A program made the position numbers and the translations under genes. This document shows positions 3,118 through 19,837 of a DNA stretch of 24,000 bases, piece after piece. Under the pieces are notes generated by a model. It saw only the letters and a list, made by a program, of their open reading frames with translations, was not told the DNA's origin and did no database searches. Each line of letters starts with the position of its first letter. Position 1 is the stretch's first letter. This DNA is from Prochlorococcus sp. AG-436-O09 (lineage in GTDB: Bacteria > Cyanobacteriota > Cyanobacteriia > PCC-6307 > Cyanobiaceae), in NCBI GenBank assembly GCA_003209775.1, contig QCPN01000004.1, forward strand, positions 23,059-47,058. The letters are read 5' to 3'.

Positions 3118-4602
<1,485 letters not shown>

Positions 4603-4778
4603 CAGGGAGACATAAACTGATTATGATGTCTGATTTATAAATTTAGGCCGTAATCCTGTCACCTTAGGTCGATCGGTACCTCAGATTATTAACTTTTGAA
4701 ATTGAGAAATCACTTATCATTAGTCTTGTAATTTCAGTTCCTAAACTTGTCTAGGTCACACCCAACAAACTTTCTCCT

Positions 4779-4852
<74 letters not shown>

Positions 4853-4861
4853 TTCGTTGTT

Positions 4862-4934
4862 GGGGGTATAGCTCAGTTGGTAGAGCGCCTGCTTTGCAAG
4901 CAGGATGTCAGCGGTTCGAGTCCGCTTACCTCCA
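4862..4934 (+). tRNA. tRNA-Ala (anticodon UGC)
   Basis: gggggtatagctcagttggtagagcgcctgcttTGCaagcaggatgtcagcggttcgagtccgcttacctcca. The G3:U70 alanine identity pair is present. No encoded CCA. Confidence 0.97.
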
Positions 4935-5101
4935 CTGATCAACTACCTGATAACTTAAATTGGAGATTGTTATTTGTTAAATGTGATTTAGATGTTGTTC
5001 AACTGAAGGAACCTAGCTTCCTATCATTCCTGAATTAATTTTAGGCTGATAAGACGCTGGGCTCACTGAATGTTCTAAGGGACATACAGTTTGTTTCAGC
5101 A

Positions 5102-5122
5102 GAACCTTGACAACTGCATAGG
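5102..5122 (+). promoter_or_regulatory. spacer boxA antiterminator-like element, also the 5' strand of the 23S processing helix
   Basis: gaaccttgacaa matches cyanobacterial ITS boxA. The 20-mer 5103-5122 aaccttgacaactgcatagg is complementary (19/20) to 8215-8234 just downstream of 23S. Confidence 0.7.
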
Positions 5123-5287
5123 AAAATCTAGAAAAATAAAGCATCTCATAGATGCATAGAAGTTTTTTCATTTTTTAATGATTAGATTTTTATGTTCAAT
5201 TCTTGAGTTAGAGCAAATTTTCTATTACTTAATTCACTTAGAGATAAGTGATGACTAATTAATTTTAGCTAAGTTTAATAGATTAAT

Positions 5288-8161
<2,874 letters not shown>

Positions 8162-8214
8162 CTTCTTCATCTAACAATTTTATTGTCTTTACTTTTTTAG
8201 ATATTTAATAATTT

Positions 8215-8234
8215 CCTATGCAGTTCTCAAGGTT
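8215..8234 (+). other. 3' strand of the 23S rRNA processing helix
   Basis: cctatgcagttctcaaggtt is the reverse complement of 5103-5122 with one mismatch. The pair brackets 23S, as expected for an RNase III processing stem. Confidence 0.7.
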
Positions 8235-8258
8235 CATTCCTTGAACATGAAAATGTTT

Positions 8259-8377
8259 TCCTGGTGTTCATCGCGATGTGGACCCACTCCGATCCATCCC
8301 GAACTCGGTTGTGAAACGCATCAGCGGCGACGATATTTGGGGGGAAGCCCCCTGAGAAAATAGCTCAATGCCAGGTT
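8259..8377 (+). rRNA. rrf: 5S ribosomal RNA
   Basis: tcctggtg...ccatcccgaactcggttgtgaaacg...aaaatagctcaatgccaggtt. The ends pair (helix I) and the conserved ccgaac / gtgaaac loop blocks are as in cyanobacterial 5S. Confidence 0.93.
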
Positions 8378-11608: not shown

Positions 11609-12979
11609 TTACTTTATAAGCTTATTAATAAATGAAATGTCTAGTTTATAAGGTGGATACCTGAAATTTATATCTAGCCAAAAAGGCCTATTTAAAATAG
11701 ACTTTAGATGGGAAAATACTTCAAAGCCTGCTTTGCCATGATAAGAACCTATGCCACTGAGGCCGACTCCTCCAAAAGGAAGTTCAGGTATTCCTGCCTG
11801 AATGATTACATCATTGAAGCAAACCCCACCAGAACTTGTTAGGTTAATCACTTTTTGCTGATCTTCTAGACAACCACCAAACATATAAATAGCAAGAGGC
11901 TTTGCTTCTTTTTGGATTATATCTAATCCTTCTTTAAGACTTTTGATAGTTAGAATAGGCATTATAGGGCCGAAAATTTCTTCTGACATTATTGCATCAT
12001 CAATGCTCTCTAATTTTATCAATGTAGGGCAAACTTTTTGCTCTGAATAATTGATTGAACCACCAAAAATAATTTTATTGTTCTCAAAGGCATTCTTAAT
12101 TAAGCTAACAACCTTTACAAATTGCCTATTATTTAATTTTGCTAGGTCAGGTGATTTTTCTGGATTTGTACCATAGAAACTACTTATATTTGTCTTAAGT
12201 TTAGAAATCAATTGCTCATTCAATTCCTCTTGTACTAAAAGATGGTTCGGTGCTAAACAAGTTTGACCGGAGTTTAGACTTTTGCCCCATGCAATTCTTT
12301 TTGCGGTAATATCTATATTTGCTCCTTCAAGAACTAAAGTTGGGTTTTTCCCTCCAAGTTCAAGAGTTACAGGTGTTAAATAGTTTGATGCGGACCTCAT
12401 AACTTTTTTTCCAATTTCGCTGCCTCCAGTAAAAAAAACATGGTCAAATTCATTCTCTAAAAGGCTTGCTGAAAAATTCGAGTCTCCCTGAAAAACTTGT
12501 ACAACGTCATTGGGGAAGAATTTTTCAATAAGTCTGGCTATTAATTCTGAGGTGGAAGGAGCAAATTCTGAAGGCTTGACAATGGCTGTGTTTCCTGCGG
12601 CTAGTGCAGATATCAAAGGCTGTAAGGTCAGCATGAAAGGATAATTCCATGGGCCAATAATTAAAACGCAACCTAAAGGTTCTGCTATTACGCTCGCTGA
12701 TCCTGGTTGAAGCCATAATGGAACTTTTATTTTCCTTGGTTGCATCCAGTTGAAAAGATGTTTATTAGCTATTTGGAGCTCTTGCTTTAAAGCAAGAATT
12801 TCAAAGAAGGCTTCTGTCGAAGGCTTTTGTAGATCCTCTGCTAATGCTTTTATAATTTGTTCTTCATTTTCTTCCAGAAGCTTCTTTATTCGGTTGAGTT
12901 GCGTCCTTCGCCAAGATTGAGGTCTTGTGTGGCCTTCGCGAACCTGGTTTCGGAGATCTTTGATTTTAAATTTTTTCAA
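11609..12979 (-). CDS. aldehyde dehydrogenase, class-3-like NAD(P)+ family, 456 aa
   Basis: ALDH signatures are present: GPWNYPF, the catalytic Glu motif LELGGKNP, the catalytic Cys motif NSGQTCLAPNH, and EEIFGPIMPI. Confidence 0.92.
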   Translation of the reverse strand: MKKFKIKDLRNQVREGHTRPQSWRRTQLNRIKKLLEENEEQIIKALAEDLQKPSTEAFFEILALKQELQIANKHLFNWMQPRKIKVPLWLQPGSASVIAEPLGCVLIIGPWNYPFMLTLQPLISALAAGNTAIVKPSEFAPSTSELIARLIEKFFPNDVVQVFQGDSNFSASLLENEFDHVFFTGGSEIGKKVMRSASNYLTPVTLELGGKNPTLVLEGANIDITAKRIAWGKSLNSGQTCLAPNHLLVQEELNEQLISKLKTNISSFYGTNPEKSPDLAKLNNRQFVKVVSLIKNAFENNKIIFGGSINYSEQKVCPTLIKLESIDDAIMSEEIFGPIMPILTIKSLKEGLDIIQKEAKPLAIYMFGGCLEDQQKVINLTSSGGVCFNDVIIQAGIPELPFGGVGLSGIGSYHGKAGFEVFSHLKSILNRPFWLDINFRYPPYKLDISFINKLIK

Positions 12980-13033
12980 TTATCAAACTCCAGTAAAAGA
13001 AGACTCTAGATAATTGCAGACTAATTAGTCGAA

Positions 13034-13210
13034 TTAACGTCTACGAGTTTTTCTTCTTTGTTGAAGTTTTCTTGTGTATTTCTCTACAGGCGTCTCATGA
13101 TGGCGAAGACGCTTTAATTCTCCAAAAATGCCAGCTTTAGAAACTTGACGTTTAAAACGTCTAAGCGCTGATTCAATCCCTTCGCTCTCCCCAACAGTTA
13201 CTAGTGTCAA
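13034..13210 (-). CDS. rpsU: 30S ribosomal protein S21; probable TTG start at 13210 (the longest ORF extends to a TTG at 13228)
   Basis: (M)[57 protein letters not shown] matches cyanobacterial S21, which begins MTQVTVGE. There is no in-frame ATG. Confidence 0.93.
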
Positions 13211-13284
13211 AATAAGAATCTTACACAAAGAGGCTTATTCTATCAGTAGGAATAAAGGAAAAATGCTTTTCTAAAAAGGTTTTT

Positions 13285-13674
13285 CTAAGTTACTTTTGAA
13301 AAATTTAACCCATCTTCCCGATTGAAGACTGCGCTCCAAATCCCATTACAAACAATCTGAAGCTCAGCCATAAGCTTTTCATTATCTCCTGTATTTATCC
13401 ATTGGGCTTTAATTATTGGGATTCTCTCTTGCATTAATTCCATAGGTATCTGAATCAATAGAAGACTTTGGTCCCCATTACTTCTCCTTAGTCTCCCTGA
13501 TTCACTTTTCTGAAAAACCCTAAGGAGTAAATCTGAAGCAAGGCCCTCTCCGGCAATCCCTGGGTTGCTGCTTGGATCAATAAACTTGCTAATTGACTTC
13601 CCACCTAATGGCATGAACCTTTTGCCTTCTTGGTCAATTAATGCAAGGGCAAGAAGATAGAGATGTTCGCTCAT
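13285..13674 (-). CDS. hypothetical protein, 129 aa
   Basis: ATG-initiated ORF filling the gap between rpsU and the flavoprotein gene on the same strand. No family recognised by eye. Confidence 0.65.
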   Translation of the reverse strand: MSEHLYLLALALIDQEGKRFMPLGGKSISKFIDPSSNPGIAGEGLASDLLLRVFQKSESGRLRRSNGDQSLLLIQIPMELMQERIPIIKAQWINTGDNEKLMAELQIVCNGIWSAVFNREDGLNFSKVT

Positions 13675-13816
13675 CTAGAATCTTTCTTCAATTAAGTTCA
13701 ATTAAAACAATACTTTAAACTTAATGTTTTAAACTTTCTTGCATTAGTAATTAATATACGTGCATCTTTGACCTCAATAAATTTGTCTTTCATTCGTTAA
13801 TTCTGCTGTTGATGAA

Positions 13817-15052
13817 TTATTTTTTGCTACTAGCAATTGCCCGCCCTGCAATCCATCCGCTTGTCCAACAGTGTTGAAAATTAAAACCACCAGTTACTCC
13901 ATCAATATTCAAGACTTCACCCGCAAAATAAAGTCCTTTGCAAACGAGACTCTCCATAGACTTTAAATCAATTTCTTTTAGACTTATACCTCCAGCGGTT
14001 ACGAACTCTTCGCCAAAAGGTCCTTTGCCTATTATTAATTGGTTGTTTTTAGTTAAATAGTTACATAATAAATCTTTCTTCGAATTCGAAAAGTTTGACC
14101 ACTTCGATTTAGAATCAATGCCTAAATTTTCTAAAAAAGCAACCCACAGTCTTCTAGGTAATTGTTTAAAAGGATAGTATTTTTTGATGCTATCACTTGA
14201 ATAATTTGACCTATAAGATTCTAGGAGCTTATTGACTTCATTGTAATCTTTATCTATCCAGTTAATACATAAAGAAGATTTATATTTGTCTAAATTTAGA
14301 TCCCTGGCAGCAAATGAAGATAATTTTAATACAGCAGGCCCACTTAATCCCCAATGTGTAATTAAAACTCTTCCAAATTCTTCGAAATGGTTATCATTAG
14401 ATATTAATCTTAGATTTACTCTGTCAACTGAAATACCAGAACATGATGTTAACCATTGTGCATTAAGCTTAAAAGTGAATAAAGATGGCACTGCATTGAT
14501 TAATTGATGGCCAAGATTCTTGGCTATTCTTTTACCACTTGGTGAACCACCTGTTGCTATTAAAACTCGTTTAGCAAAAAAAAATTTCTTATTTTGACAT
14601 TCTATTTGAAAAGTCTTATCACTAAGCTTTTTAATGGCTTTAACTTTTACTCCTGTTAGACATTGAACTCCTAAAGCTATAGAAGCCTTTTGTAGACATT
14701 TTATGACTTCTTTAGAAGAATTGGACTTAGGAAAAATGCGACCATCTTCTTCGACTTTCAACTCCAAACCTCTTTCCTCAAACCAATGGATTGCATCTCC
14801 AGTAGAGAATCGACTAAAAGCACCTAATAAAGCTTTCTCCCCTCTAGGATAATTGGTAGTCAACTCACGTATATCCAAGCATGCATTCGTAACATTGCAT
14901 CTTCCACCACCGCTAATGCGCACTTTCTCAAGTGTTTTCGCAGTTTCTTCTAAAATAGCAATTGAAGAAGTTCTTTCTTCAGCTGCTGTAATTGCAGACA
15001 TGAAACCTGATGCTCCTCCTCCAACTACGATTAAATCAAATGTTTCTTCCAA
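13817..15052 (-). CDS. HI0933/BaiN-type FAD flavoprotein (NAD(FAD)-utilising dehydrogenase family), 411 aa, TTG start
   Basis: Rossmann motif DLIVVGGGASG lies 5 residues from the start. Family signatures RISGGGRCNVTN and C-terminal GEVLNIDGVTGGFNFQHCWTSG are present. An upstream in-frame TAG at 15062-15064 leaves TTG as the only start ahead of the dinucleotide fold. Confidence 0.9.
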   Translation of the reverse strand: MEETFDLIVVGGGASGFMSAITAAEERTSSIAILEETAKTLEKVRISGGGRCNVTNACLDIRELTTNYPRGEKALLGAFSRFSTGDAIHWFEERGLELKVEEDGRIFPKSNSSKEVIKCLQKASIALGVQCLTGVKVKAIKKLSDKTFQIECQNKKFFFAKRVLIATGGSPSGKRIAKNLGHQLINAVPSLFTFKLNAQWLTSCSGISVDRVNLRLISNDNHFEEFGRVLITHWGLSGPAVLKLSSFAARDLNLDKYKSSLCINWIDKDYNEVNKLLESYRSNYSSDSIKKYYPFKQLPRRLWVAFLENLGIDSKSKWSNFSNSKKDLLCNYLTKNNQLIIGKGPFGEEFVTAGGISLKEIDLKSMESLVCKGLYFAGEVLNIDGVTGGFNFQHCWTSGWIAGRAIASSKK

Positions 15053-15335
15053 TTGGAACCCCTACCTTACTCTCAATTTAAAGATAAATTGTTGTTTGAC
15101 CAAGGTTGCTTAAAAAATTTGACTCATTAAGTTCTTTCCTGGAAGCTTTTGATTGAAAATTCTGAGAGATATACGAAGATCAGCCAATTGCTTTCAAGTA
15201 ATGTCCTTGGGCAAATGCTAGGAATTTAGATACCTTTTAACAAATTAATACCATCTTAAACCTCCCAAATCCCTTTGACCTTAGGTTGACTACTCGTAAG
15301 AAAAGATTCAAACTAAACTCTTCTGAAACTTATTT

Positions 15336-16061
15336 ATGAAATGTGCTTTGGATATTAAAAAAACTACTAAATATCTATTAGTGGCTTTTTTGATTTTCGT
15401 TTTAGTTATTGCTAATAATCTTTTTGATCTGGATTTAATCAATAATTTATTTGGAGACTCTGAAAGTATCTTAACTAATCAATTTATTACTGCAGCCTTG
15501 CTGATATTTCTTTTGCGAAGTGTAAGCATTGTTATACCTATTATACCTGGTACTTATTGCTCTGTAATTGCAGGTTATTTCTATGGAATTAAAGTTGGAA
15601 TGATTTTGATTTTCTTTGCTGATTTCATTTCTTGCTCTTGCTCCTTTTTCTTATCTAGAAAGTTAGGTCGAAATTTTGTTAAACGACTGTTAGGTACAAA
15701 ACAAATGCAAAGAGTTGAAAATATAAGTCAGAGATATTTAGAGCAGAATATCTTCTTAATGACGGGATTTTTAATGACCCAGTTTTTTGACTTTGTTTGT
15801 TATGCAATAGGTCTAACAAAGGTATCTTGGAAGAAATTCATGACTGCTCTTATAATAAGTATTTTAATCTCAGACTTACCCTTTGTCGCAGGTGGTCATA
15901 CACTGAAAGCTCTTAATGGCGTAACTCTTAGAGAGTTGTTAAATGGAGAAGTCCAGGCTCTTAGCGGCCATTACCTAATATTATTTATAATAACTGTTCT
16001 TTCTATATTTGGATTAGGTATATTAAGTCATTTTCTTACCAGAAAATCCATGGATCAGTAA
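15336..16061 (+). CDS. TVP38/TMEM64 (DedA/SNARE-associated) family membrane protein, 241 aa
   Basis: Multi-pass hydrophobic profile. Family-typical segment VIPIIPGTYCSVIAGYFYG followed by FFLSRKLGR. Confidence 0.85.
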   Translation: MKCALDIKKTTKYLLVAFLIFVLVIANNLFDLDLINNLFGDSESILTNQFITAALLIFLLRSVSIVIPIIPGTYCSVIAGYFYGIKVGMILIFFADFISCSCSFFLSRKLGRNFVKRLLGTKQMQRVENISQRYLEQNIFLMTGFLMTQFFDFVCYAIGLTKVSWKKFMTALIISILISDLPFVAGGHTLKALNGVTLRELLNGEVQALSGHYLILFIITVLSIFGLGILSHFLTRKSMDQ

Positions 16062-16093
16062 TTAAGTAGTTAGAAAAACTATTATTTAGAAAA

Positions 16094-16128
16094 CCAAACC
16101 TATTGTGTCTGGACTTAGGCAAGTTTGG
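16094..16128 (-). terminator. possible Rho-independent terminator downstream of the rubredoxin-like ORF
   Basis: On the minus strand, ccaaacttgccta..loop..taggtttgg (5+4 bp with a bulge) is followed by ttttct. Imperfect. Confidence 0.3.
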
Positions 16129-16175
16129 CTTGTGAGTTGGTATCAATAATTCAGTTAGAAATGAATATCTTTACT

Positions 16176-16352
16176 TCACAATGGTTTAAATCGCTTTTTG
16201 GTTGATTTGCAAGTAGGCCATAGCCATTTACTTGGCAGGTCTTCAAATGCTGTGCCAGGTTGAATGCCTTGAGAAGGTTCTCCTTTTAAAGGTTTATAAG
16301 CATAAATGCAATCTTTGCATTGATACTTTCTTCTAGAGAATATAGATGCCAT
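16176..16352 (-). CDS. rubredoxin-fold small protein, 58 aa, with a degenerate metal site (not in the supplied ORF track)
   Basis: Hand translation: MASIFSRRKYQCKDCIYAYKPLKGEPSQGIQPGTAFEDLPSKWLWPTCKSTKKRFKPL. It aligns without gaps to rubredoxin [47 protein letters not shown]. ATG start, TGA stop. Confidence 0.55.
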   Translation of the reverse strand: MASIFSRRKYQCKDCIYAYKPLKGEPSQGIQPGTAFEDLPSKWLWPTCKSTKKRFKPL

Positions 16353-16433
16353 TACTTTATTTGAACTACTTTAAAAATGTCAAAGAAGTGCTTACTTGGC
16401 AATTAAAATCTTTTGTTTAAAAACTTTTATTTT

Positions 16434-17600
16434 CTAAGAGGATTTACGAATTAAGTACTCACTACCAATTAGGAAGATTAGCACTGGTGACCATGCTGAA
16501 ATAATAGGATGCAAAGTTCCTGAAACCCCAAGAGCACTAAATAAGAATGAGACAGTGTAGTAAATGAGGATCAAAATGATACTCATTCCAAATGCGATTG
16601 ACTGGCCACTCCCTCTTGTTTTTGCTTTTCTTATAGCCAATGTGCTTCCTATTATTGAGAAAACCAAGCAAGATAAGGGAACCGTAAATTTTTCCTGAAT
16701 TTTTACCTTTAACCTATTCTCTTCCTTGAGATTGCCCGAGAGATTATATAACTTTAAAGCATTATATGCTTGATTTAAGTTCATATTATTAGAATTAGTT
16801 GGTATTTTTGCAATCATGACGGGACCATACCCAAGATTATAAGAATACTTTAAGAAATTTTCTTTTGATGAGGGCTGACTTTTGTTAAGAGAAAATATAC
16901 TACCATCTCTTAAGAGCCACTGCTCTTGCTCAACTTCCCACTCGCCTTCTTTTGCTAAGATTAATCTATTCTGTTGACCATCACCATACTCAACTAATGT
17001 CAAGTTATGCATTACGTTGTCTTTATATTCTTCTGCATGAAATAAGGCCTCTAAATTCTTTTCACTATCAAACTGACTGTAAATTATATCCTTTTTGTAG
17101 GAAATATCTGAAGATTGTCCTAGGCCTCTTCTGAATACTGAATTGGCTTTTAGATTTGAATTAGGAGCGATATAATTACTAAAGCTAAATGTAATAAATG
17201 ACATTAAGATCCCAATATATATGGCTGGCAAAAGTATTCTTCTACAGCTAATACCTAAGCTAGTTAAAGCTTTTATTTCACTATTATTATAAAGCTTAGA
17301 GAATGCAAGAAGACATCCAAGTAAAGTAGCCATAGGCAAAGCTAAAGTTAGATATCCAGGGAGTTTTAAAAATAATATTTCAATGGCTATTGACCAAGTT
17401 AGATTGGTATTTATAACCATTCTAATTAAGTATAGGAGTTCTCCAAAAGATAGACAAAGAACTATAAATGATGAGACGCTAAATGTTAGTGGAGGTATAA
17501 TTTCCGAAATCAACCATCTGTCAAGTAATGGCATAGCTTTAATGCTTTTCCCTATATATCTCTCGATTAAAGAAAATGCTTTTAATTTATATTTAGTCAT
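16434..17600 (-). CDS. LptF/LptG (YjgP/YjgQ) family permease; the longest ORF is 388 aa, and the family-typical N-terminus suggests a start at the internal ATG 17534
   Basis: MPLLDRWLISEIIPPLTFSV.. matches the LLDRYL-type N-terminus of the family. It has an N-terminal TM bundle, a central soluble domain and C-terminal TM helices. Confidence 0.88.
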   Translation of the reverse strand: MTKYKLKAFSLIERYIGKSIKAMPLLDRWLISEIIPPLTFSVSSFIVLCLSFGELLYLIRMVINTNLTWSIAIEILFLKLPGYLTLALPMATLLGCLLAFSKLYNNSEIKALTSLGISCRRILLPAIYIGILMSFITFSFSNYIAPNSNLKANSVFRRGLGQSSDISYKKDIIYSQFDSEKNLEALFHAEEYKDNVMHNLTLVEYGDGQQNRLILAKEGEWEVEQEQWLLRDGSIFSLNKSQPSSKENFLKYSYNLGYGPVMIAKIPTNSNNMNLNQAYNALKLYNLSGNLKEENRLKVKIQEKFTVPLSCLVFSIIGSTLAIRKAKTRGSGQSIAFGMSIILILIYYTVSFLFSALGVSGTLHPIISAWSPVLIFLIGSEYLIRKSS

Positions 17601-18118
17601 TCTCTTTCTCCATCCATGCAGATGATTGCAGCTTCTTGAATTGGACTTGTATGAAAAGCTAAAATAGCATTAATGAGATGATGCTCTGAGAAAAGAATAT
17701 CTGGGACATGAAATAATTCCTTTGCAGTGTCCTGCATTTTTTTCTGGATATTACTTAACTGACTTTTAATTTCTGATTTGAGGAATAACTTTTCTTTTAC
17801 CCAAACCTGGATCACGGCAAAGAATAACCTCCTACTTTGAGGTGTAGCCCCTAAATATGCCGCTGTCAATCTTTTAAGTGTCAGCAAAGGCTTCTCATCA
17901 CAAACAATATGATCAATCTCATTAAGCGTGAGCTTATTGCTTTGTAGGCAATCCTTCAAAGCTTCAACAGGGAAGTTTGAAACATGTTTTTTGTGTGTAA
18001 AGCTTTCTTCTTGTGCAGCAGTAATTCTTTCACCATCAGTATTTAAAGCTGCTGAAGCATTTCGGTAGTCAAGGGATAGACCAACTATCCTTTTAGGTTT
18101 TAAATTTATGTAGATCAC
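17597..18118 (-). pseudogene. N-terminal remnant (173 codons) of a NodU/CmcH-family carbamoyltransferase
   Basis: IVGLSLDYRNASAALNTDGERITAAQEESFTHKKHVSNFP..IVCDEKPLLTLKRL..QVWVKEKLFLKSEIK..PDILFSEHHLINAILAFHTSPIQEAAIICMDGERE* is collinear with the first ~170 of ~600 residues of carbamoyltransferases (ILGISAFYHDSAAAL..GEIVAAAQEERFTRKKHD..EHHLSHAASAF..EAAVLTLDGVGE). It ends where the family continues. Only a GTG start is available. Confidence 0.7.
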
Positions 18119-18551
18119 TTTTGAAGCGACTAAAACCTAACATGGTGGAATCTAATCACTCTAACTTATGATGATTAATCCTCTCAAGTCTTTTTGATGG
18201 TTGATTTTATTTAAGATTTCTAAACTTCGGGACCCTTAATTCCTGTCAATTTTTGATTTTAATAGTTACTCAAACTACTAGCAAAGAAAAGTCAAAGAAG
18301 GAAATGTACTTAATAGACAAAGATAGAAAGCTAAGTTAATATTCAATTTAGGAATATAACCCTAATTGATTGATTGATTTATGAAAGCAATATTTGGACA
18401 ATTTGCATACTATTTACTCCAATACTCAAGTCAATATTTAAATTTAATATTTTCTAAATCAATACATCCCCAAGAAATTAAAAGCATAGTTGACTCATAA
18501 GTTTGCAATATATTCTACAGCTCTCGTTCATACCCTTCCAATTTAGCTTTG

Positions 18552-18647
18552 TTATTTATATAATAAATGTCCTGTTAAATTTATTGCTATCCACATAAAT
18601 GATGAAATAGAGATCATAAAAAAGATAACTTGATCTATTGCTTTCAT
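18552..18647 (-). CDS. candidate 31-aa single-helix membrane peptide, 22 nt downstream of the PsbF-like gene
   Basis: ATG..TAA ORF encoding MKAIDQVIFFMISISSFMWIAINLTGHLLYK, with a hydrophobic core of about 20 residues. No homology recognised. It could be a chance ORF in AT-rich DNA. Confidence 0.2.
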   Translation of the reverse strand: MKAIDQVIFFMISISSFMWIAINLTGHLLYK

Positions 18648-18669
18648 AAAATTATATCTATCTCACTTT

Positions 18670-18972
18670 CTATGCATTGAATAAGCCTCTCCTAATGAAT
18701 TGCATGGCAAATATTGCACCAAGGAAAAAGACCGTTGGAATACCCAAAGCGTTTACTGCGAGAGTTCTCACGGTAAAAACTGGGTACCCTCCCTTAGGCC
18801 TATTATCTGGAACAATCCCACTGTCTTCCCAGTCTTGATAATTTTCTAATGATGGTGCGCCAGGTAGAACGCCGTCGTTCCATTTAAGTACTCCCCAATA
18901 TGATAGCCAGAAGACTGTTGAGAATGAAGCAATCAGTACGGGAGCCATTACAATTAAAATTTTGATAGCCAT
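18670..18972 (-). CDS. two-helix membrane protein with a C-terminal PsbF (cytochrome b559 beta)-like domain lacking the haem-ligand His, 100 aa
   Basis: ATG start. Residues about 62-96, [34 protein letters not shown], compare with PsbF [34 protein letters not shown]. An additional N-terminal hydrophobic helix is present ([27 protein letters not shown]). Confidence 0.8.
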
Positions 18973-19555
18973 TGTTAGTTCAATTTATATACAATTGCTT
19001 TTAATTCTTATCCCTATAAACTTTTCCTAAGTGTCATTCTTTAGGTTGATTGGTGATAAATGCCACTGGCTGAAGTTAGTTACACTTAACTGTGATTATT
19101 CCTATTTCTATGATGTCATATATTAGTCATTTATATGTATAAAAGCTTCCACTTAATTCGTAATTTTGAAGTTATATTAAAAATCGACGCTTAATATTCT
19201 TTAAGTTAATTGATTTTAGAACATTAATTGCCAATCTTTATTTATCAGTAATTCAGTAAAGTTGAATACCAACTCTATAATGGAAGCAACTACTAGTACC
19301 TGAGATAATTTCTCTTAGAAGAGTTTTCCAGCTATTCCTATGGATATGTGCCGCAATTCGATTCTACGAAAACATGGATAAGAGCTCAAGCTACTAGTAA
19401 TAACTTTCGGAGTCAATGAAGGCCGTTGGGAGACTCTTGATGCTCTTAAAAGAAGGCAGTTATAAAATGCTAAGGACTTATCAATGTTCGACGCCTATGG
19501 AAGTAGGGCTGAGAGCATGCGTAAAACAGAGAGGCAATCTGTTCTTAATACACCT

Positions 19556-19837
19556 TTAAGTGCTTTTAACCCTATTTGCTTTGAGACTCTTTTTTTTTTG
19601 TAGTTTATATCCGAATTCGATTAATTGATGGTATGTCATTCGTGCTTGCTCTTCTTGGAGTGAAAGGATTCTCTCGTCATCCTTCTTTAGATGGAAATTA
19701 CTTCGATCGCTTTTGTCTTTTTCAATAGTGATATGGGATTTGCCTTTCTTTAATTTCCAAGGTTGTTCTTGGTAGTTGCTATCTTCTATGTTCAGTTCCC
19801 AGGGAACTGGCTTTGAGTTTTTATTTTTTAATGGCAA
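19556..19837 (-). CDS. hypothetical basic protein, 93 aa, TTG start only
   Basis: Open frame in an otherwise stop-rich AT-rich region. Lys-rich, no family recognised, no ATG near the 5' end. Confidence 0.35.
   Translation of the reverse strand: MPLKNKNSKPVPWELNIEDSNYQEQPWKLKKGKSHITIEKDKSDRSNFHLKKDDERILSLQEEQARMTYHQLIEFGYKLQKKKSLKANRVKST

Follow-up and report, generated by a model that had tools for sequence, protein, structure and literature searches.

The window, by which we mean the whole 24,000-nt stretch of Prochlorococcus DNA analysed here, carries an intact gene for a 58-residue rubredoxin-family protein in which the third cysteine ligand is replaced by a tryptophan found in this one genome only. 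The family is known and annotated, and the window copy adds to it a private ligand-loss mutation without defining a new protein class. From its substitution pattern we conclude, with moderate confidence, that this accessory rubredoxin is a ligand-loss allele on which selection has relaxed, which would make it an incipient pseudogene or a loss-of-function allele.

The gene, its product and the metal site

16176 to 16352, minus strand: intact rubredoxin-family open reading frame (ORF) of 58 aa, ATG to TGA, PF00301 over its full length
16305 to 16319, minus strand: first knuckle, C12-K-D-C15-I16, both ligand Cys kept, Ile for the canonical Gly
16206 to 16220, minus strand: second knuckle, W45-P-T47-C48-K49, Trp for the third ligand Cys, Lys for Gly

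The ORF is established as a real rubredoxin-family gene. Its translated product, MASIFSRRKYQCKDCIYAYKPLKGEPSQGIQPGTAFEDLPSKWLWPTCKSTKKRFKPL, matches the Pfam profile PF00301 (Rubredoxin) from position 1 to 47 of 47 with an E-value of 2.9e-18 and 66 bits (cut-off 23 bits), as a preliminary description of this DNA had anticipated in proposing the search. That description had also aligned the product residue for residue with rubredoxin, and the alignment with solved rubredoxins is indeed gap-free (best match 9zdi_A, E 7e-16). On the NCBIfam equivalog NF045768 (RubredRD) the product scores 66.4 bits, below the cut-off of 90. An AlphaFold2 model, which takes no account of metal and was built from nine clade sequences in an alignment of four-Cys relatives, reaches a pLDDT of 81.9. 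Foldseek matches this model to rubredoxin crystal structures (1rdg, 7rxn, 4rxn and others) with a probability of 1.00, TM scores of 0.83-0.94 and an rmsd of 0.7-0.9 Å. The product is predicted to adopt the rubredoxin fold, with its three-stranded sheet, two knuckles and aromatic core.

The four ligand positions are occupied by C12, C15, W45 and C48, and the residues that follow the knuckles are I16 and K49, so the reading of the metal site as CKDC ... WPTC with Ile and Lys in place of the knuckle glycines was accurate. Codon 45 is TGG at 16220-16218 (plus strand cca), again as first described, and reads TGC in the five relatives L001, L081, L082, L002 and L003, of which the first four are the closest at the DNA level. 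The product holds no other Cys or His, which rules out a fourth thiolate or imidazole supplied by another residue. Instead of the paired CxxC and CPxC knuckles of a four-Cys site, the product has three cysteines. The earlier statement that an Fe(Cys)4 centre cannot form with the site as written is right: the exchange of TGC for TGG removed the third, buried thiolate and left an indole in its place. No second rubredoxin that could compensate was found within the window.

Canonical rubredoxins, such as those of Clostridium pasteurianum, Desulfovibrio and Pyrococcus, share with the product a gap-free alignment through the aromatic core and PGT.F..LP..W as well as the fold, predicted to within 0.7-0.9 Å. 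They differ in having CxxCG...CPxCG where the window has CKDCI...WPTCK, the third (buried) Cys being lost to a non-ligating Trp. Prochlorococcus also has the cyanobacterial RubA ('rub', PMM0295 in MED4), which likewise contains a rubredoxin domain. RubA is anchored in the membrane by its C-terminus, and its gene belongs to the core set, with a link to photosystem biogenesis, whereas the accessory paralogue in the window encodes a soluble protein of 58 aa that has no anchor. Transcriptome papers on Prochlorococcus 'rub' concern the membrane-anchored RubA, another paralogue, and were set aside as a source on the window gene.

Relatives and the origin of the tryptophan

The closest relatives of the product form a clade of soluble rubredoxins of 52-61 aa, carried by some Prochlorococcus lineages and labelled 'rubredoxin' by NCBI where they come from cultured strains. 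Length, start and stop are the same in these proteins (P0004, P0006; L001-L019), amino-acid identity is 62-88% (86-88% for L001, L081 and L082), and they share the CKDC[I/V]Y first knuckle and the CPxC[K/R] pattern of the second. In the closest clade the order lptFG, rubredoxin, VTT, HI0933-like flavoprotein is common to both as well. The window from 12179 to 17635 is 94.2% identical, gap-free over 5.5 kb, to a contig of Prochlorococcus sp. AG-402-G10 (L001), and both have in common an LptF/G permease, the rubredoxin, a VTT/DedA membrane protein, an HI0933-like flavoprotein, a 129-aa ORF and an aldehyde dehydrogenase. By both sequence and synteny the product is orthologous to the Prochlorococcus small soluble rubredoxin. 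It differs from every member of the clade at the third ligand, which is Cys in all of them, and by six further private replacements.

16434 to 17600, minus strand: LptF/LptG-family permease, upstream neighbour (PF03739, E 1.7e-70), control gene with dN/dS 0.15 against L001
15336 to 16061, plus strand: VTT/DedA-type membrane protein, downstream convergent neighbour (PF09335, E 4.9e-17), control gene with dN/dS 0.18 against L001

Outside the nearest clades, in other Prochlorococcus, the rubredoxin gene sits in unrelated, island-like contexts among small hypothetical genes. By these sequence comparisons the small rubredoxin is an accessory gene in Prochlorococcus. Function was not deduced from an operon, given that the context of lptFG, rubredoxin, VTT and flavoprotein is confined to the nearest clades and no conserved partner can be named.

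The third-ligand Cys is present in every one of the about 40 relatives compared, which comprise 8 database homologues, 19 species-representative Prochlorococcus genomes, 3 close metagenome contigs and 15 listed of the 17 members of the nearest 90% cluster. In a collection of 15 billion proteins the window product is present as a called protein, a singleton cluster on one NCBI contig of 47,060 bp, and a word-indexed search of the same collection, which picks up proteins with as little as one 5-mer in common (LWPTC, for example), gave no further protein with this Trp. A scan of metagenome contigs with an exact 32-nt pattern spanning codon 45, the variable base being left as N, gave no matches and hence no near-identical population sequences. 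Trp45 is private to this one genome.

The knuckles tell a different story from the ligand. All 19 species-representative Prochlorococcus genomes have I, V or T after the second Cys, and about two thirds of them have K, R or N after the fourth, the rest having G. The same pattern recurs in the 8 database homologues, the three close metagenome contigs and the 15 members listed, out of 17, of the nearest 90%-identity cluster, so that the about 40 orthologues read C-x-x-C-[I/V/T] and mostly C-P-x-C-[K/R], with four Cys in all. Among 194 rubredoxin domains (the best 150 representatives of a library of 1.84 billion proteins together with the clade members), the residue is other than Gly in about 36% at the first knuckle and about 31% at the second (Gly in about 64% and 69%). 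The best structural matches of the product include the clostridial mutants G10A (1b13), G43A (1b2j) and G10V/G43A (1b2o), whose solved structures we take to show that non-Gly knuckles are tolerated. The small-rubredoxin clade of Prochlorococcus as a whole has thus inherited its non-Gly knuckles from its ancestor, and they are compatible with four Cys.

This bears directly on the argument of the preliminary description, which had counted the Trp and the two knuckle residues as three independent departures that favour a diverged three-Cys protein over a one-off error. The first half of that argument falls, since the non-Gly knuckles belong to a clade whose other members all have four Cys; being inherited across it, they are therefore uninformative on a three-Cys design. 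Aligning the orthologues, as had been suggested, upheld the conservation of the non-Gly residues, throughout at the first knuckle and mostly at the second, and failed to uphold that of the Trp, in place of which all of the about 40 compared have Cys. Orthologues with CPxC had been named beforehand as the finding that would speak against the proposal, and they are what was found, the Trp being private to one genome.

Loss of a single Cys ligand is seen in about 2.6% of database rubredoxin domains, with two cases at the third-ligand position (C to R and C to Y). These two, the unrelated database rubredoxins P0117 and P0121, read WERPDCG and WKYPVCR, each a single-base change from TGY. Sporadic ligand loss at the third-Cys position recurs at a low rate in databases.

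Substitution pattern and the state of the allele

Changes private to the window allele were polarised against L081, L001 and L082 with L002 and L003 as outgroups.

16205 to 16342, minus strand: span of the eight private substitutions (16342 T4I, 16337 T6S, 16299 synonymous, 16293 N20K, 16228 T42K, 16218 C45W, 16213 I47T, 16205 A50S)

Seven of the eight are nonsynonymous. Five are GC to AT, the direction in which mutation pressure should act when a genome is AT-rich. A relative-rate test counts 8 nucleotide changes private to the window allele over 177 bp, against 0-1 in L001, L081 and L082 (binomial P 0.008-0.04), while the flanks are balanced, with 87 changes on the window branch and 103 on the L001 branch. 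The dN/dS values set the gene apart from its neighbours in the same way:

Rubredoxin gene against L001: 1.08
Rubredoxin gene against L081: 1.9
Rubredoxin gene against L082: 2.2
The five genes of the flanks against the same three close relatives: 0.09-0.35
Rubredoxin gene against L002, a more distant relative: 0.14

The last value indicates that the clade is normally constrained. The purifying selection seen in the rest of the small-rubredoxin clade is not detected in the window allele, for which the counts are small (8 substitutions across 58 codons). With branch counts polarised by L001 and L002, the window branch has 51 synonymous and 36 nonsynonymous changes in the flanks and 2 synonymous and 6 nonsynonymous in the rubredoxin gene, where 1.5 nonsynonymous changes would be expected from the flanks (Poisson P 0.004); a contingency test of nonsynonymous against synonymous changes, gene versus flanks, comes out as no more than marginal (Fisher one-sided P 0.07). 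Had every site of the gene evolved at the synonymous, neutral rate of the flanks, 9.5 changes would be expected, a number that the 8 observed approach; a gene as constrained as the flanks would have 3.5, and the observed number lies above that (P 0.026). All private replacements other than C45W affect positions that vary in the wider family, and they need not damage the protein.

The course of events that we favour would start from a four-Cys small soluble rubredoxin, by homology a one-electron carrier with one Fe despite its non-Gly knuckles. In this lineage a single C-to-G change (TGC to TGG) would have turned the third ligand Cys into Trp45, which cannot ligate iron and is bulky enough to fill the site, and the Fe(Cys)4 centre would probably have been lost or badly impaired. 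Drift under relaxed purifying selection would have come afterwards, and its near-neutral build-up of replacements suggests that the role for which selection had kept the protein is no longer fulfilled. As the ORF and the conserved element upstream of it are still intact, the present state would be that of an incipient pseudogene or a loss-of-function allele.

The ORF retains its start, its stop and this upstream element. That they are intact counts against a reading of decay, and a loss of expression is not implied.

16366 to 16408, minus strand: conserved upstream element, TTTTAATTGCCAAGT(G/A)AGCACTTCTTTGACATTTTTAAAGTAG, shared by L001, L081, L082 and L002
16094 to 16112, minus strand: weak hairpin of terminator type with a T-run behind it, 64 nt past the stop codon, poorly conserved in relatives and tentative

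The upstream element is conserved even where the upstream gene differs, as in L081, and holds a perfect TTGACA (16383-16378) and two TAAAGT hexamers resembling a -10 box; it is probably the promoter or leader of the rubredoxin gene. A promoter consensus scan returned TTGACA-18-TAAAGT ending 2 nt before the ATG, a consensus match at a level not above shuffle expectation. This pair was not adopted as the promoter, in that transcription would start inside the ORF and the upstream TAAAGT is equally possible. Two G-to-A changes private to the window lie in or near the element, at 16393 and 16356 (minus strand), a rate (n=2) similar to neutral divergence. One of them breaks an AAGTG-AG-CACTT palindrome, and the other turns a Shine-Dalgarno-like AAGG, 4 nt before the ATG, into AAAG.

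An error of sequencing, amplification or assembly would make the true codon TGC and the protein an ordinary functional four-Cys Prochlorococcus rubredoxin. The difference is one base in a singleton sequence on one contig, the nearest relatives are single-cell amplified genomes, as the source itself may be, and the background of about 2.6% single-ligand loss, which includes C to R and C to Y at the third-ligand position, fits errors or lesions. One wrong base leaves unexplained the seven further private substitutions (six of them nonsynonymous) in the same 177 bp, and the surrounding 5.5 kb is gap-free, with an ordinary, balanced and mostly synonymous divergence and no signs of poor assembly. 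A lone base-call error at 16218 is probably not what happened, and error in general we regard as unlikely. As for the one-off error that the preliminary description had argued against, the excess of other private amino-acid changes means that it is not the best reading either.

A dN/dS near or above 1 would be produced equally by positive selection, and the same changes could then describe a functional, adaptively remodelled three-Cys derivative in which T42K, C45W, I47T and A50S create a new site at the second knuckle. Such a site might hold Fe or Zn with three thiolates and a water or hydroxyl (T47/S50), or a bridging [2Fe-2S] cluster, or the protein might be a metal-free, iron-sparing form stabilised by Trp. 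The values of 1.9-2.2 against L081 and L082 agree with this, as do the intact ORF and upstream element. So does the position of four replacements, out of seven in all, no more than nine residues from the lost ligand; two of the four add hydroxyl side chains. The engineered ligand variants that have been studied presumably have Ser or Ala at positions other than the ligand lost in the window (C42S, 1be7, included). That an altered rubredoxin can take up another cofactor is suggested by C42A, with one Cys ligand removed, in which a [2Fe-2S] cluster was assembled (PMC2946596); variants with Ser for a ligand Cys do fold (PDB 1be7). Yet the Trp and its associated changes occur in a single sequence, and neither another genome nor a metagenome contig or database protein has them; both the number of changes and their bias from GC to AT are as neutrality would have it, the clustering of the four nonsynonymous changes is not significant at these counts, and Trp is not a metal ligand. 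Adaptive remodelling strikes us as decidedly improbable on this balance, and still a little more so in its full form, in which positive selection in an iron-poor ocean lineage would have remodelled the knuckle at K42, W45, T47 and S50 into a site for another metal or cofactor, or into an iron-sparing form without metal.

Import by recombination from an unsampled divergent lineage with a Trp-type protein as its norm is very improbable: the locus is recombination-prone (a breakpoint in L081 lies ~50 nt upstream of the rubredoxin start) and the gene borders a variable island, but a functional allele brought in from elsewhere should show mostly synonymous differences, whereas seven of the eight are nonsynonymous, and a Trp-type lineage was found neither among 185,579 species genomes nor in the metagenome contigs or the protein collection.

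If relaxed selection on a ligand-loss allele is the right reading, the gene would be a snapshot of decay in a streamlined marine cyanobacterium, in which an accessory iron protein was disabled by one ligand missense and then drifted at a neutral rate as a seemingly intact ORF. It would add one data point on the loss of iron proteins in Prochlorococcus and a caution for annotation, as a strong Pfam match and an intact ORF need not amount to a functional protein. For metalloprotein chemists the allele would be of interest only if a functional three-Cys protein, the minority reading, were true.

The surrounding region

17635 to 19555: variable island beside the rubredoxin locus, without counterpart in the otherwise syntenic L001, L002 and L003
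17597 to 18118, minus strand: 173-aa ORF with a carbamoyltransferase N-terminal domain, matching only the first ~158 of 346 positions
18670 to 18972, minus strand: PsbF-like 100-aa ORF, its C-terminal ~40 residues matching cytochrome b559 (PF00283, E 2.3e-9)
3118 to 8376, plus strand: complete rRNA operon (16S 3118-4602; tRNAs 4779-4852 and 4862-4934; 23S 5288-8161; 5S 8260-8376)

Between the homologues of the ORF at 19556-19837 and lptFG, L002 has only about 360 bp. The carbamoyltransferase-like ORF overlaps with its end the first 4 nt of the LptF/G gene and looks like the remnant of a truncated gene. On the metagenome contig L081, lptFG (174-1265) is 70% identical to the window, while the rubredoxin gene is 95.5% identical and the stretch with the rubredoxin and VTT genes (1432-2061) 95-97%; the recombination breakpoint noted above corresponds to about 16400 in the window, at the start of the conserved upstream element.

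The rRNA operon is the reason for the higher GC content of the window overall (38.7%, compared with ~34% around the rubredoxin gene). The PsbF-like ORF has Asn at the position of the heme-ligand His, and a homologue with 84% identity and the same Asn lies directly upstream of the rubredoxin gene in Prochlorococcus MIT0603 (L018, 2963-3262). Judged from these two sequences, the PsbF-like ORF may represent a conserved heme-less paralogue of PsbF.
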